In this document: one piece after another, positions 17,842 to 64,000 of the stretch
Layout: each line of letters begins with the position of its first letter
Numbering within the stretch: the stretch's first letter is position 1
Sequence record: PZ027503.1
DNA length: 64,000 nt
Direction: 5' to 3' (one strand)
From: a phage
Program-made: the position numbers and the translations under genes
The notes under the pieces: generated by a model
Seen by the model: only the letters and a program-made list of their open reading frames with translations
The model's database searches: none
What the model was told of the DNA's origin: nothing

Positions 17842-18149
17842 TGTATAAGATTACAATTATTCAAAGTGTAGGTAATATCCGTAAAGAAGTTATCTTAGAA
17901 ACAGAAGATGTTAATCTTGTTCGTGAGATTGTTCTTAAGGAAGATAACCTGCAAGCTGTAGAATCAGATGCACCGAATCTTATGGTGGATCAAGAATATT
18001 CTGAACTTCGTCGTATTTTTGAAGAGATTCAGAAGAAAGAAACACAACCGACCATAAAACCTTTTGGTCCTTATGATCCGAGCAATCCTAGCAGTCCTTG
18101 GATCATGAGAAATACGGAACCGTATACACCTTTTGAAATTACTTGTTGA
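17841..18149 (+). CDS. hypothetical protein
   Basis: ORF in track; ATGA-type overlap. Confidence 0.45.
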   Translation: MYKITIIQSVGNIRKEVILETEDVNLVREIVLKEDNLQAVESDAPNLMVDQEYSELRRIFEEIQKKETQPTIKPFGPYDPSNPSSPWIMRNTEPYTPFEITC

Positions 18150-18156
18150 GGTGATT

Positions 18157-18738
18157 ATGGCAGAACTGTTCTATACGGGAGTTGGAAGTAGAGACATATC
18201 CGAAGAAGAGTGGGCTTTGATGGTAGGCATAGGGAAATGGCTTTCAAACCTTGGGTTTAAATTAAGGTCTGGGAAGGCAGAGGGTAGTGATTCTGCTTTT
18301 GAAACAGGTGTCCAAGAGTCTGAAAATCCTACTAACAAGGAGATTTATGTTCCTTGGGAAAATTTCAAAGGTAATCAGATTCCAGGGGATGTTATTGTTC
18401 TTGCAAAACCAGATACAATGAACTATGCTATCTCTGTGCAATGGATCAAAGATGTTCACCCAGCCTATGAAAAGCTTAAGCAGGGTGCTAGAAAATTGCA
18501 CCAACGTAATGTGCATCAAGTGTTAGGTAGAGATTTGGAGAATCCTGCTCCATCATGTTTCTTGTTGGCTTGTGCTAATACTGATAAACATGGAGATGCA
18601 AAAGGTGGAACAGCTACGGCTTGGAAGATAGCTAAAGCCAATAATGTTCCTTGTTTAAACATTCGTGGGAAAACAAAACAAGAGATTTACGATTTTCTAC
18701 GACCTTTGGTAATGAGGGCAATAACAAGTGATTCCTAA
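18157..18738 (+). CDS. SLOG-superfamily (DprA/LOG-like) Rossmann-fold protein
   Basis: YTGVGSR...RSGKAEGSDSAFETG...KGGTATAWKIA resembles DprA/LOG glycine-rich motifs; start at ATG 18157 after GAGGTGA. Confidence 0.4.
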   Translation: MAELFYTGVGSRDISEEEWALMVGIGKWLSNLGFKLRSGKAEGSDSAFETGVQESENPTNKEIYVPWENFKGNQIPGDVIVLAKPDTMNYAISVQWIKDVHPAYEKLKQGARKLHQRNVHQVLGRDLENPAPSCFLLACANTDKHGDAKGGTATAWKIAKANNVPCLNIRGKTKQEIYDFLRPLVMRAITSDS

Positions 18739-19509: not shown

Positions 19510-19690
19510 AACAGTAGAAGAAGCCGTAAAAGCAGCTTATGAGGCTTTAGCGGAAGCAGAGCAGTTAGCAGATGAGACTGGTAAAGGTTTCCGTTTCTCC
19601 CCTGAATATGGGATGGGTGGCTATTATGATCCAGAAGATGAAAATGAGAATACTGGAACAAATTGGCATCCATCTTCTTTAAGTTGTTAA
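19493..19690 (+). CDS. small acidic protein ending in NWHPSSLSC
   Basis: ORF in track; GGAGAGGAG RBS; C-terminal W-x-SS-x-SC shared with next two small genes. Confidence 0.5.
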   Translation: MTTKFKTVEEAVKAAYEALAEAEQLADETGKGFRFSPEYGMGGYYDPEDENENTGTNWHPSSLSC

Positions 19691-19701
19691 TAGGAGGTAA
19701 A

Positions 19702-19971
19702 GTGGGAATCGAAGATATCAAAGGTTATAAACCGCATACCGATGACAAAATTGGTAAAGTGAATGCTATTAAAGATGCTGAAGTTCGATTAGGATTAATC
19801 TTTGATGCTCTAATGTCTGAATTGTGGGCTGAACTGGATGATTGTGAAGATTTGGAAGAGTCTACCAATATATCCACCCGCCTTGACCAAATTTCAATAG
19901 CAAAGACTAAGTTGAAAGAAGCTTCTATGTGGGCCTGTCGTTCCGTTTTCCAACCAGAGGAGAAATACTAA
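19702..19971 (+). CDS. hypothetical protein
   Basis: ORF in track trimmed to GTG 19702 after TAGGAGG. Confidence 0.4.
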   Translation: MGIEDIKGYKPHTDDKIGKVNAIKDAEVRLGLIFDALMSELWAELDDCEDLEESTNISTRLDQISIAKTKLKEASMWACRSVFQPEEKY

Positions 19972-23287: not shown

Positions 23288-23773
23288 ATGTTTCAAGTAA
23301 ATGTCAATGTGCATAATAGTTACTCTGATTGTGAAACGTGTGGCTATAATTCATCTAATGTTATTCGTATTAGTGGCGATTTAGGAGAAGCTTCTTTTGG
23401 AGAAGAAGCAAGTTGCTTTAGTGGTATGGATGCAGAATGGAATGATATTGCACATTGGTTAGTGAGCAAACTAAAAGAAAAAGAGAAACCATTTCCTACT
23501 CTGCTTGATCGTTCTCTTGTGGAAGATGCAGGTAAAGCATACGCAGACTATGCGTATGCAGACGGGAAATATTTGGAAGATGATAAGGCTAACCATTTGC
23601 TTTATGTTTACTATGAAGCTGAATCTGCCTACGATAATTATTACAGCATGTCTAACATCCTACGTCTGTTTGCAGAGTTTGATATTTATTTCGAAGTAGA
23701 ATTTTCAGAAGATGATACTTACGAGTACAATTCTTATGATCCATTTGAGGAGGAAGAATGCCAAGACGAGTGA
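23288..23773 (+). CDS. hypothetical acidic protein
   Basis: ORF in track; GGAGGGA RBS. Confidence 0.5.
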   Translation: MFQVNVNVHNSYSDCETCGYNSSNVIRISGDLGEASFGEEASCFSGMDAEWNDIAHWLVSKLKEKEKPFPTLLDRSLVEDAGKAYADYAYADGKYLEDDKANHLLYVYYEAESAYDNYYSMSNILRLFAEFDIYFEVEFSEDDTYEYNSYDPFEEEECQDE

Positions 23774-24573
23774 TTTTTGTAAGCGGTGCAGGTTTAAGTG
23801 CAGACAGTGGGATTCGAACATTTAGAACAGACACAGATAGTGGTCGTGCTTTATGGGAAGAATATGATTTAGAAGAGGTCTGCGATATTGGAGCTTTCCA
23901 AGCAGGTTATCGTGTTAGAACATCTCCAGATCTTCCAGTGGTCGGTGGTGTAGACGAGAACGGTATGGATTTGTATGCCAAAACACACGAATTTTATAAC
24001 AAAAGACGTGTTGAGCTTAAAGATGTACAACCTAATGCTGCACATATTCAAATAGCAAAGTGGTTTAAGGAATATCCTAACCAAATAGTAAACTTGACAA
24101 CAAACGTTGATGATCTACTAGAGCGAGCAGGTGTAGACAGAGATTCTGTTATTCACGTACACGGCTATCTTCCTGAAGTAGTTTACCGTATGCATCCTGG
24201 AGATTACAAAACACTGGTAGATATTGGTTACAATAGTATAAACATAGATGATTATAACTGGGTGAAGCCTAATGTTGTATTTTTTGGTGAGGCTGCACCT
24301 TTGTATGCAGATATGGCTCACTTGTTCGATACTTTGACCATGCAAGATTTGGTTGTAGTAGTAGGATGTTCAAACCAAGTTATCAATTTTAATTGGGAAT
24401 TATTTCCTGCACTTAGTATGGGTACAAAAATGGTTGTAGTTAACCCTGGAGTTAATTACGAAGAAACACTTCTCTATGAAGATCGTGGAGTTTTTGTTTA
24501 CCGAGAAAAAGCTGCAACAGCCTTCAGCAATGAAGGTTTCATTAAAATGGTCGAAGACCACTTAAACAAATAA
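23758..24573 (+). CDS. Sir2-family (sirtuin/CobB-like) protein lacking the zinc-ribbon cysteines
   Basis: GAGLSADSGIRTFR, QPNAAHIQIAKW, TTNVDDLLERAG, VIHVHG, VVFFGE parallel CobB; the Cys4 segment is absent. Confidence 0.8.
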   Translation: MPRRVIFVSGAGLSADSGIRTFRTDTDSGRALWEEYDLEEVCDIGAFQAGYRVRTSPDLPVVGGVDENGMDLYAKTHEFYNKRRVELKDVQPNAAHIQIAKWFKEYPNQIVNLTTNVDDLLERAGVDRDSVIHVHGYLPEVVYRMHPGDYKTLVDIGYNSINIDDYNWVKPNVVFFGEAAPLYADMAHLFDTLTMQDLVVVVGCSNQVINFNWELFPALSMGTKMVVVNPGVNYEETLLYEDRGVFVYREKAATAFSNEGFIKMVEDHLNK

Positions 24574-57038: not shown

Positions 57039-57581
57039 TCACAAATATCGTCTTTGCGGTATTTTGTCTGGGAAAAGTATTTCGATCAGTTTATTATGAT
57101 ATTTACCTAAAAGATTCTGCCCTTTCCAGGTGGCAGGGTTTAGCACCCCTGGTTCATACATCCCCATTCCAATTCCGTAAACCTTATCGTAGGGGCTTGC
57201 TTCAACAAACGTTTTGTATTGGTAAAGGTGTAAGTCTGCATACAAATCTGGATTCTGTACATATTTCAAGCATAAACCTCGCATAACAATACGCTCACGG
57301 TTCTCTTCCCATACGTTGTTATCAAAATCCGACACTGCCCTACCCATACGTTTGTAATAAGCTTGGATCTTCTCATCTTTCCGTATCAAACTATGAGTCA
57401 GAATAGCCTGTGCAGTGTTGTGATCATTAAAAAGCAAAGCTTTACGCCACATCATGTATTGTTCGACACAATTAAATGTCTGATTGTAACCTGGTTCGGT
57501 TTCTGTAAAGGGTGCAATATACCAATTACTAAAAACATCTTTATGTGAAAAGAAGAATACATAATCATCAGTTATTCGCAT
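57039..57581 (-). CDS. NADAR-domain protein (YbiA-like, DUF1768)
   Basis: FFFS...FSNW, VEQYMMWRKALLF, KRMGR, VEASPYDKVYGIGMG, NLLGK follow the YbiA/NADAR pattern. Confidence 0.75.
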   Translation of the reverse strand: MRITDDYVFFFSHKDVFSNWYIAPFTETEPGYNQTFNCVEQYMMWRKALLFNDHNTAQAILTHSLIRKDEKIQAYYKRMGRAVSDFDNNVWEENRERIVMRGLCLKYVQNPDLYADLHLYQYKTFVEASPYDKVYGIGMGMYEPGVLNPATWKGQNLLGKYHNKLIEILFPDKIPQRRYL

Positions 57582-57769: not shown

Positions 57770-58135
57770 TTAGTCCATCCACCAGTAGCCATAAACTGCG
57801 TCTGCGTCGATGAGTTTGTGTTTGTTGTTTCGCATGTAGTCTAAGATAAGTAGACGTTTATTGTATCTGGAGAGATTATGACCCTCTTTTCCGCCATAGT
57901 CAAAATATTTTGCAAGATCTTTGCACTCAAACAAAATTAGTTCGGGAGTTTCTTCACACTGGTCTGTCTGGTACACTTGACGAATGATCATGTATACATC
58001 ATCGTCTTCCGCTAAATGCTCTACTGGTCCACATCCAGCAGGAACAAATTCATAGTCCCATCTGATCAGATGTTTCTCTACTGCTTCAAAGAAGTCCATT
58101 CTTTCGTTGCGCATAATTTGAACGTCAACTAACAT
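57770..58135 (-). CDS. hypothetical protein
   Basis: ORF in track; AGGAGGAAAC RBS. Confidence 0.5.
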   Translation of the reverse strand: MLVDVQIMRNERMDFFEAVEKHLIRWDYEFVPAGCGPVEHLAEDDDVYMIIRQVYQTDQCEETPELILFECKDLAKYFDYGGKEGHNLSRYNKRLLILDYMRNNKHKLIDADAVYGYWWMD

Positions 58136-59136
58136 GTTTCCTCCTGTAATATTCCACCATAAAGTTTATAAATGTTTTGTATTGATGCCAGACAAGATAG
58201 CTCCACTGTTTCTGTGTAGCCGTCTGGCATAGCATATTTGCTCACTGCTTCTGTGTCTAACACCTTTTTGCAATACTTTTCTGAATTTTTGCACTGCTTC
58301 ACAGTGGGGAACTGCCACACTTGAACTTGTCTCATAGTAAACACATTGCGGCTATTCTGTTCTTTGATACGGCGATCACTACTATTGGCAATACCAAACT
58401 TCAGTGCACAAAGAATACCATCTTCATCATAAATATGATTAATGTAACATTGTTGTTGGTTTTGGCCCCCGCACTGCGGACACCCACTCCCCTTATGTAG
58501 CAAACCATCTGCACGCCCTATCTGTTCCCCGTGCTCCTTACATCCATATTTAAACTTACCCATTGTTGAAGGTTTACCGATCCATCCTACCCATATATAT
58601 CCTCTCCTTTCTACTTCCTTTCTTGTTCTATAGGTGGTCTGATCCTCTGTGTATTTGTAACTTGTAGAACAGCGGCAAGGGAGACACCCACGTTTAAGAT
58701 GACTTCCGGTAGCATAGAATTTACCATCACACACCCCAGCTTCCACATATTCATCATGAGAGCAAACAGGACATTCAACCATCCATACTATATCACACCC
58801 TTTACGTTCCCCTGTATTGGTGAAAATAGTGCCTTCCTTAAATTTACCTACCTTCATAAAATCTTGTATGTGTTGCTGGTCTGGAATAGTGATAGCTTTG
58901 CTTCTCTTTTTCGAACGTTCCCTGTAGGCGCACTTAGGACAACCTCGACCATCTTTAAAACTGTGAAACGTTGTAGTATTCCATTCATGACCATGCTCAC
59001 AACGATTGATCATCTTCGTATGCACACCTTTATCTTCTCCATACGTGCCGAGAATGGTAATCCCTTTAGCCTCAGCTATCGGCTTACATTCTTCCATATA
59101 TGTTTCAATACTCTTCTTTACTGGCATATCTAACAA
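58129..59136 (-). CDS. Cys-rich protein with repeated G-x-G-C-P-x-C zinc-ribbon-like motifs
   Basis: CEHGHEW...GRGCPKC, ECPVC, RGCLPCRC, GSGCPQCGG; 335 aa. Confidence 0.45.
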   Translation of the reverse strand: MLDMPVKKSIETYMEECKPIAEAKGITILGTYGEDKGVHTKMINRCEHGHEWNTTTFHSFKDGRGCPKCAYRERSKKRSKAITIPDQQHIQDFMKVGKFKEGTIFTNTGERKGCDIVWMVECPVCSHDEYVEAGVCDGKFYATGSHLKRGCLPCRCSTSYKYTEDQTTYRTRKEVERRGYIWVGWIGKPSTMGKFKYGCKEHGEQIGRADGLLHKGSGCPQCGGQNQQQCYINHIYDEDGILCALKFGIANSSDRRIKEQNSRNVFTMRQVQVWQFPTVKQCKNSEKYCKKVLDTEAVSKYAMPDGYTETVELSCLASIQNIYKLYGGILQEETC

Positions 59137-62521: not shown

Positions 62522-63013
62522 TTACCACATAATCTCGCGCAACTCTTTTTCTTCTTTAAAATTACGCAAGTTTTCCAGTGCACGGTTTAGGTCTTCTTCC
62601 GTCTCTGCTTTCTGGACTTTTTCCATCATTTTCGCAACAATATTTTTCTTAACTTGCAAATCTGGAACAGGCATACGTTTTTCCATTTCATAAACTTCTC
62701 GTTTATGACGTTCCTCCATCTCTGCTTTTTCTTTTACCCAATCCGCCTCGTCCATTGCACCTTTGCAGACACAAGTGTAACCTTTAATAGTATAATCACC
62801 ATGTTCAATACCAGGTTGAAGAGCTAAGGCTTCATTACCACAATACGCGCACAACGGACGACCTGGCATTTTCAAAGTTTTGGTAGCCTTAGCGCCACAT
62901 TGACTATCCCAGCTTGTTTTATAACTGGAACCGTTGTCTCCGTGAGAACGACCAACCAAGAAGTTACGGAAGAAACCCATAGCACGTTCGTCAATGTAAT
63001 CAGGGTAAGCCAT
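62522..63013 (-). CDS. hypothetical protein with Cys cluster
   Basis: ORF in track; CAYCG...CVCKG. Confidence 0.45.
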   Translation of the reverse strand: MAYPDYIDERAMGFFRNFLVGRSHGDNGSSYKTSWDSQCGAKATKTLKMPGRPLCAYCGNEALALQPGIEHGDYTIKGYTCVCKGAMDEADWVKEKAEMEERHKREVYEMEKRMPVPDLQVKKNIVAKMMEKVQKAETEEDLNRALENLRNFKEEKELREIMW

Positions 63014-63375: not shown

Positions 63376-63403
63376 TTGACATGCTTTTTAGTCCTGTTAA
63401 GAT
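63376..63403 (+). promoter_or_regulatory. sigma70-like promoter at divergent junction
   Basis: TTGACA, 16-bp spacer, TAAGAT. Confidence 0.45.
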
Positions 63404-63433
63404 CAACTCATACAAAACGAGAGGAGAAAACAA

Positions 63434-63862
63434 ATGCAAAACATGACTTGGACCGAAGCTAAAGAAGCGATGCAGAATGGCAAACGTGTGAAGCACGAAT
63501 ACTTCTGTAGTGATGAGTGGTTTGAGATGCAATACGGTGTTATTCTGGATGAGCATGGCTACAATATGTCAAACTGGTTCCGAGGGGAAGCTTGGCAGGA
63601 ACAGGGTTGGTTTGTAATTGAAAAAGAAGACAGTAAGGAAGAAGGCGTGTTGTCTAATGTAGAACGCGAGATGAGGGAAACAAAGATACCTGCTTTGGAT
63701 TTTGTATACCTGGAAGAACTTGTGGCAGCATCTTTTGTAGCAGGAAACCTTTGGAATACACCTGTTAGCCGACTGGAGAACCAAAATAACCCGTCTGCTC
63801 GTAATCACAAGCTTTATAAGGGTAAAGGTCACAACAAATTAAAGAAAGGAAAGAAGAAATGA
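63434..63862 (+). CDS. DUF2829-like protein with basic C-terminal tail
   Basis: N-terminal MTWTEAKEAMQNGKRVKHEYF...GWFVIE resembles DUF2829 pattern; GAGAGGAGAAAAC RBS. Confidence 0.4.
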   Translation: MQNMTWTEAKEAMQNGKRVKHEYFCSDEWFEMQYGVILDEHGYNMSNWFRGEAWQEQGWFVIEKEDSKEEGVLSNVEREMRETKIPALDFVYLEELVAASFVAGNLWNTPVSRLENQNNPSARNHKLYKGKGHNKLKKGKKK

Positions 63863-63999
63863 TCTACAAAAACAAGTTCACTGGTTGTCTCCGTAAATTT
63901 ATCGATAAGAAAGGGTATGTTTCTCTTGACAACGGGGCTACATGGATAGAGAATGGTGCTTCAGAACAATTGATTAAAGCTTTGCCTTACTACGAGGAG
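63859..63999 (+). CDS. hypothetical protein, 3' end beyond window
   Basis: ATGA overlap with upstream stop; frame open to window end. Confidence 0.4.
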   Translation, partial: MIYKNKFTGCLRKFIDKKGYVSLDNGATWIENGASEQLIKALPYYEE

Positions 64000-64000
64000 G

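Follow-up and report, generated by a model that had tools for sequence, protein, structure and literature searches.

Tad2 (SPO1 gp34.65; PF11195; PDB 8SME-8SMG) is a small phage-encoded protein in which W25, N26, W73 and D79 directly contact 3'cADPR or its waters, with supporting contacts from I63, T65, D67, H71, S76 and T78. Its pocket is formed by the beta1-beta2 loop, the beta3-beta4 loop, beta4, the beta4-alpha3 loop and alpha3. The beta2-beta3 loop and alpha2 make up the V-shaped dimer of the Tad2 homotetramer, whose two ligand pockets lie between protomers that are not paired in a dimer (10.1101/2023.05.01.538930). Fusions of canonical Tad2 to Acb4 or Sequestin are frequent (10.1101/2025.07.12.664507). 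Sponges of the Tad2 fold have repeatedly led to new bacterial immune messengers. AcrIIA7, which shares the fold, binds tracrRNA via the basic groove of its tetramer (PMC13133391). Among motif-poor Tad2 homologues, five of six were inactive against seven signalling systems, although one divergent Tad2 without the WNG and SQTD motifs, homologue #79, inhibits type I and type IV Thoeris (Hadary et al. 2025).

The stretch of DNA analysed here, referred to as the window, comprises 64,000 nucleotides of phage sequence record PZ027503.1. It is 98-99% identical to the Phapecoctavirus genomes WPEC1 and tuntematon (Stephanstirmvirinae), and its source is a Phapecoctavirus-type E. coli myophage. A 142-aa protein is encoded at 63434..63862 on the plus strand, and we are confident that its residues 1-62 form a pared-down and divergent version of the fold shared by the Tad2/DUF2829 superfamily; we call it mini-Tad2. 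By analogy, the protein is a candidate anti-defence protein.

Gene structure and expression signals

The ORF lies exactly where a preliminary description of this sequence had placed it (63434-63862); it is on the plus strand, with an ATG at 63434 and a TGA stop at 63860-63862. The N-terminus of the protein reads MQNMTWTEAKEAMQNGKRVKHEYFCSDEWFEMQYGVILDEHGYNMSNWFRGEAWQEQGWFVIE, and the motif quoted in that description is literally present (MQNM-TWTEAKEAMQNGKRVKHEYFCSDEWFEMQ...GWFVIE). A good ribosome-binding site read from the sequence, GAGAGGAG (63419..63426, plus strand), lies 7 nt upstream of the ATG. Further upstream, in the divergent intergenic region, is a sigma-70-like promoter at 63376..63403 (plus strand; TTGACA-16 nt-TAAGAT, with TG before the -10; 10/12 matches), an assignment that is suggestive only; the same region holds five promoter-like sites, compared to 2.5 +/- 1.7 in shuffles. 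At the other end of the gene, the stop overlaps the ATG of the next ORF in an ATGA at 63859-63862, suggesting translational coupling between the two. Only the start of that ORF, 63859..64000 (plus strand), is contained in the window; it belongs to phrog_2381 and its equivalent in tuntematon is gp066.

Orthologues of the 142-aa protein at 52-99% identity are found in approximately 70 phage records, forming 21 protein clusters across which conservation follows a pattern like that of purifying selection. Together with the ribosome-binding site and the promoter-like site, this conservation rules out a spurious ORF, and 63434..63862 is a real gene. The tuntematon orthologue, gp065, is the leading gene of an operon of small genes that runs rightward, back to back with a leftward one, and the gene is plausibly expressed early. 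Its neighbours are all either 'hypothetical' or members of PHROGs with no assigned function. The divergent upstream ORF (62522-63013, minus strand, 163 aa), which matches phrog_11258, is rich in Cys (CAYCG...CVCKG), and its C-terminus is helical and highly charged.

Phage distribution and size of the family

Searched alone, the 142-aa protein has no match in Pfam, PF11195 included even at E <= 10, and none among PDB sequences or in NCBIfam. Over its full length it matches phrog_22208, while residues 1-63 match the 64-aa family phrog_3474 (E 5e-30); both are PHROGs without assigned function. A tblastn search of 50,697 phage records matched 494, including approximately 70 Stephanstirmvirinae records which cover >= 80% of the query and > 400 further records which match residues 1-65 only; among the matches listed, nearly all of the homologue records are annotated 'hypothetical protein'.

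Enterobacterial phages of the T4-like, T5-like, Felix O1-like and rV5/phAPEC8-like groups all carry members of the family. In the first three groups the members consist of the domain without linker or tail, and a stand-alone form of 60-70 aa is usual in T4-like Klebsiella phages (Jiaodavirus, where the orthologue is 62 aa), in Felix O1-like phages (Suspvirus and relatives) and in T5-like Epseptimavirus, where the homologue is located at approximately 7.4-9.2 kb. In the T5-like phage cott162, the homologue gene lies within the annotated left terminal repeat and is thus present twice per genome. As the T5 terminal repeat is the first DNA to enter the cell, the gene would be expected to arrive with the earliest injected DNA.

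With only the 66-aa domain as query, a word-indexed search for homologues returned a single match, while a family profile seeded with seven phage homologues gathered 88 proteins. An exhaustive HMM search of 1.84 billion representatives returned 1,447 at E <= 1e-3 and 187 at E <= 1e-10, giving a family of at least 1,447 clusters at 50% identity. Among the best 150 of the 1,447 representatives, 80 are no longer than 80 aa, 32 are 81-120 aa and 38 exceed 120 aa. Two single chains carry tandem domains (two copies in P0132, 175 aa; three in P0160, 331 aa), a hint of what would be expected of a domain that works as an oligomer.

Conservation was computed over 257 aligned domains. The best conserved positions are E28 (98%), A9, G16 and F24 (97% each), E40 (96%) and W59 (93%), followed by G42 (89%), M13 (88%), V19 (84%), Y43 (76%) and H21 (65%, with N in a further 26%). 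A basic residue, K or R, occupies position 18 in 93% of the domains, and positions 48/49 are aromatic in most members.

A remote relationship to Tad2

The relationship to Tad2 emerges at the level of the family. A profile built from seven sequences and compared with the PDB returned SptTad2, Tad2 and ModTad2 as its top three matches (E 0.0055-0.14), in alignments that extend over the N-terminal helix as well as the C-terminal W...W-x-V segment. Of 85 family members, 47 matched PF11195 at sub-threshold level (E <= 1; lowest E-value 1.5e-5), as did 40 of 74 members in a second set; other Pfam families were matched by at most two members of the former set (24,736 models) and at most three of the latter. 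In hhalign, the family aligned to eight bona fide Tad2 domains with 90.9% probability (P 1.1e-6). The resemblance to DUF2829 is beyond chance at the family level.

Structure prediction agrees with the profiles. An AlphaFold2 model of residues 1-66, made with the family alignment (pLDDT 91.5, pTM 0.77), has the core Tad2 arrangement, in which an N-terminal helix packs against a sheet of antiparallel strands and the short alpha3 is followed by a last strand with D/G-W-x-V at its end. Foldseek comparison of the full-length model with the PDB gave SPO1 Tad2 chains for all of the top five matches (probability 0.72-0.97, E 0.3-1.1), and in BFVD the neighbours beyond the family itself bear the names 'DUF2829 domain-containing' or 'Thoeris anti-defense 2-like', and two have a length of only 60-63 aa. 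The order of core elements (alpha1, beta1, beta2, beta3, beta4, alpha3, beta5) is that of Tad2, as are the alpha1 motif [FW]-x-x-A-x-x-A-[LM]-x-x-G-K-[KR]-V and the C-terminal [DG]-W-x-[VI] strand. The predicted elements are alpha1 at residues 6-14, beta strands at 18-21, 30-33 and 36-39, a short helix at 53-56 and a beta strand at 59-62.

The likeness to DUF2829 put forward in the preliminary description is therefore borne out for the fold, the family being a remote relative by profiles, AlphaFold2 and Foldseek, but it does not extend to a PF11195 match for the single sequence. The DUF2829 profile search that was proposed alongside it went against membership, as the 142-aa protein gives no match and its relatives score 15-19 bits (14.8-18.6 bits for five of ten individually checked), below the PF11195 gathering score of 25 bits. 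Judged by Pfam threshold or by motif, the 142-aa protein is not a PF11195 member. This differs from ModTad2 (PDB 9EIB), an 89-aa sponge of His-ADPR and cUMP, whose alpha1 is near the Tad2 consensus and which scores 95 bits against the Tad2 profile, whereas the window protein does not reach the PF11195 cut-off and has none of the Tad2 motifs.

Divergence from Tad2 in motifs and insertion

Two motifs, R-x-G-W-N-G-K-G-M and W-x-[AP]-S-Q-T-D-x-L-A-x-D-W, are common to eight bona fide Tad2 sequences, in which the first is invariant or nearly so, and to five solved chains, and neither is found in the 142-aa protein. In place of the first it has H21-E-Y-F24-C-S-D-E28, which keeps only the aromatic F24, and in place of the second W48-F-R-G-E-A-W54-Q-E-Q-G-W59, in which the flanking tryptophans are kept and S-Q-T-D is gone. 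The corresponding family patterns are H-x-x-F-T-x-x-E for R-x-G-W-N-G-K-G-M and G-E-x-W-Q-x-x-G for S-Q-T-D-x-L-A-x-D. The Tad2 contacts N26, S76, T78 and D79 are missing, and so are R22, G24, Q77 and D84, which Tad2 proteins conserve. Only about half of family members are acidic at positions 52/53, and mini-Tad2 has its own invariant E28 and E40. Aromatic residues remain at three Tad2 positions, with F24 for W25, W48/F49 for W73 and W59 for W85.

The second difference is one of size. Tad2 proteins have 25-45 residues between beta2 and beta3, while in the AlphaFold2 model beta2 (30-33) is joined to beta3 (36-39) by a 2-residue turn, so that mini-Tad2 lacks the extended beta2-beta3 loop with alpha2 and is approximately 25 residues shorter. 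Several homologues in Hadary et al. 2025 (#69, #72, #75, #78, #79, #80 and #81) are likewise short (69-108 aa) with degenerate WNG/SQTD motifs, and #80 (73 aa) also appears without the long insertion; however, none of the proteins tested in that study belongs to the FT-x-x-E / E-x-GY family described here (<= 13 bits against the family HMM). In the portion of the supplementary tables of that study available to us, the mini-Tad2 family motifs were not found.

These differences bear directly on the simplest functional reading, implied by the preliminary description, in which the protein would be a canonical Tad2 that sequesters 3'cADPR and so inhibits type I Thoeris. We consider this highly improbable. 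Fold and phage origin are shared, as are the aromatics at the positions equivalent to W25, W73 and W85, but the family falls below the Pfam threshold and has neither the WNG and SQTD motifs nor the alpha2 insert, and binding of the type I Thoeris signal by SPO1 Tad2 relies on polar contacts of N26 and D79.

A putative ligand pocket

Each of the pocket-forming elements of Tad2 has a counterpart in mini-Tad2. By secondary-structure register, the near-invariant residues of the mini-Tad2 family fall on these elements, and on this register alone F24, E28, E40, G42, Y43, W48 and W54 would all lie on such elements. Equivalences of individual residues in the beta3-beta4 region are approximate, since hhalign and HMMER align this region differently; in global or low-mact hhalign alignments both ends are consistent, and the beta3-beta4 hairpin is set against the Tad2 insertion.

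We tentatively propose, by analogy with Tad2, that the 142-aa protein may be an early anti-defence binder of a small ligand, a reading that we regard as possible while holding it short of probable. The same reserve applies to its molecular part, namely that the mini-Tad2 domain could oligomerise via alpha1 and bind a ligand, probably nucleotide-derived, at the Tad2-equivalent site. The domain would self-associate through alpha1 as Tad2 does, and the ligand would be enclosed by the beta1-beta2 loop, the beta3-beta4 turn, beta4 and the beta4-alpha3 loop, elements which carry H/N21, F24, E28, E40, G42, Y43, W48/F49, W54 and W59. Such a candidate pocket would combine aromatic residues with two invariant glutamates where Tad2 has W-N and S-Q-T-D, and as this chemistry is unlike that of Tad2, the ligand is probably not bound in the way that SPO1 Tad2 binds 3'cADPR, and the specificity probably differs or is new. 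An immune signal derived from a nucleotide would be the most plausible ligand, and its capture would weaken a signalling defence of the host at an early stage of infection.

Several observations favour this sponge-like role. Most relatives are short stand-alone proteins, the family is borne by four groups of enterobacterial phages with the T5-like copy in the terminal repeat, and the window gene is the first behind the sigma-70-like promoter. Tandem chains occur, conserved residues map to the Tad2 pocket elements, the aromatics equivalent to W25, W73 and W85 persist, and the motif-poor homologue #79 is still an inhibitor of Thoeris. Against it stand the lack of any Pfam or PDB match for the query and the sub-gathering scores of the family, the loss of the Tad2 contact residues and of the alpha2/beta2 dimer interface, and the inactivity of most of the motif-poor Tad2 homologues. 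In addition, fusions to the known sponge domains Acb4 (PF13876) and Sequestin (PF21825) were absent from 50 longer relatives, and polybasic and SEC-C tails such as those described below are not features of sponges.

C-terminal extensions and alternative binding partners

The window protein differs from Tad2 also in having an 80-aa C-terminal extension that ends in a polybasic tail. The compact Tad2/DUF2829-fold domain (residues 1-63; 63434..63622, plus strand) has a net charge of -6. It is followed by an acidic linker (residues 64-123; 63623..63802, plus strand; net -4), which is specific to this phage group, with the full-length match to phrog_22208 as its only one, and which contains two predicted helices (71-82 and 90-102; pLDDT approximately 47-69) and, in the orthologue alignment, a conserved D-[FY]-x-x-L-E segment. 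The tail itself, NHKLYKGKGHNKLKKGKKK (residues 124-142; 63803..63859, plus strand), has a net charge of +9; its sequence in the Phapecoctavirus version of the protein is also given as KGKGHNKLKKGKKK. Despite divergence of the linker, the tail core K-G-[KR]-G-H-N-[KR]-L-[KQ]-[KR]-x-K-K-K-COOH is nearly invariant in Stephanstirmvirinae orthologues (for example P0110, P0112, P0121 and L001:1501-1962). Residues 124-142 weakly match the C-terminus of the unrelated phrog_27594 (E 0.011), and no second polybasic tail of this kind was found elsewhere in the window.

Other members of the family carry different extensions. The domain is N-terminal in 45 of 49 relatives longer than 100 aa and the tails that follow it are diverse. 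Pfam searches of the 50 longer relatives identified SEC-C in three members, other matches being isolated and probably spurious. These SEC-C zinc motifs (PF02810, SecA-type) form the ends of P0152, P0171 and P0182, and GNKRxIY-type basic tails are present in P0127, P0157, P0165 and P0192. The SEC-C and basic tails suggest a recurrent C-terminal tethering module on the mini-Tad2 domain. In the window protein, the phage-group-specific linker and polybasic tail are an add-on that may tether the domain to nucleic acid, the ribosome or a membrane.

One alternative is a nucleic-acid (RNA) binder of the AcrIIA7 type, in which an oligomeric Tad2-fold domain and the +9 tail would together bind a structured RNA from host or phage, or else DNA or the ribosome. 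Such binding seems to us distinctly unlikely, and no less so its proposed outcome, that a host process or defence is blocked without sequestration of a small molecule. The strong conservation of the tail while the linker drifts would fit, as would the SEC-C motifs and GNKRxIY tails elsewhere in the family. The basic pair in G-K-[KR]-V after alpha1 (K17/R18) is conserved as well. Of the AcrIIA7 groove residues K58, K66, K71, K93 and R101 (pdAcrIIA7 numbering), two of these five RNA contacts, K93 and R101, fall by an offset calculation in the missing insertion. Moreover the domain itself is acidic, and most family members have no basic tail. HgmTad2/AcrIIA7 (PDB 8KBI, 9KZR) differs further, in that AcrIIA7 is 104-158 aa with the full insertion, pdAcrIIA7 has an N-terminal head domain, and AcrIIA7 keeps the canonical WNG and SQTD motifs in a tetramer with a basic groove, whereas the window protein has an acidic domain and is basic in its tail only. 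E. coli is not known to have type II CRISPR or a tracrRNA, which counts against a counterpart of the AcrIIA7 interaction, and an anti-Cas9 role is rejected because the host lacks type II CRISPR.

Variable C-terminal extensions on an N-terminal domain suggest a targeting or adaptor module, and a further alternative is a host-takeover protein, in which the Tad2-like fold would act as a scaffold that binds and inhibits a host protein, for example one that acts as effector or sensor in defence or one that serves metabolism or translation, with no small ligand involved. This we regard as rather doubtful. It would suit an early, small, acidic gene product encoded amid accessory early regions rich in small genes without assigned function, and the conserved surface is acidic and aromatic (E28, E40, F24, Y43, W48), as in many protein-binding inhibitors; that motif-poor Tad2 relatives are mostly inactive as sponges, and that the tails of longer relatives are so diverse, points the same way. 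However, by secondary-structure register the conserved residues coincide with Tad2 pocket elements and not with a new face, the tandem chains fit an oligomeric pocket better, and there is no known partner.

Returning to the small-ligand binder, a more specific version of it would have the mini-Tad2 family form a distinct minimal class of immune-signal sponge, whose aromatic/di-glutamate pocket captures a molecule bound by no known sponge. We think this unlikely, though its consequences would be considerable. The captured molecule might be made by a defence system with an as yet unidentified messenger, and mini-Tad2 could be used as bait for it, as ModTad2 was for His-ADPR. At 62 residues the domain would rank among the smallest sponge scaffolds. 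A large, compact branch of the fold, plausibly expressed early by many well-studied coliphage groups and with its pocket-lining residues replaced wholesale, is a candidate either for a ligand specificity not seen before or for a novel use of the fold, and one that is easy to test given the assays available in E. coli for Thoeris, CBASS and Pycsar. If it binds no small molecule, it would mark a functional boundary of the DUF2829 superfamily and advise caution against 'anti-Thoeris' labels assigned from fold alone. There would also be a gain for annotation, since hundreds of phage records carry homologues.

Signal-related genes in the window and neighbourhoods of distant relatives

The preliminary description had grouped the gene with others touching NAD/ADP-ribose chemistry, and a Pfam scan of 76 window ORFs upheld two of these, a SIR2-family protein (23758-24573, plus strand; PF02146, 69.7 bits) and a NADAR domain protein (57039-57581, minus strand; PF08719, 117.6 bits), but gave no match at E < 1e-3 for the third, a 'SLOG-like' ORF (~18133-18738). 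The scan also identified a CapR-homology-domain protein (58129-59136, minus strand; PF21817), annotated in tuntematon as 'endonuclease'.

The 102-aa ORF at 19663-19971 (plus strand) matches the Acb2/Tad1 hairpin domain (PF24729, 62.8 bits), and its residues 16-102 match T4 Vs.4/Acb2 (PDB 7UQ2) with E 3.3e-42; the true start is probably about 14 codons downstream of the listed one. These matches identify it as a true Acb2 (T4 Vs.4) sponge, so that the phage demonstrably invests in signal sequestration already, which lends some weight to a sponge role for the 142-aa protein. If that role is correct, the two would be alike as small early phage proteins sequestering immune nucleotides. They are otherwise unrelated in fold and family, the Acb2 gene being a separate one 43 kb away and the 142-aa protein having no Pfam match to PF24729.

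Beyond the window, the neighbourhoods of three distant family members consist almost entirely of small genes without assigned function. On one metagenomic phage contig (L019; 5001-5321, 6061-9488), a family member is located 1-4 kb from genes for PRTase_3, a HAD hydrolase, HD (faint) and Macro (weak), a single case of a possible NAD/ADP-ribose-related cluster.
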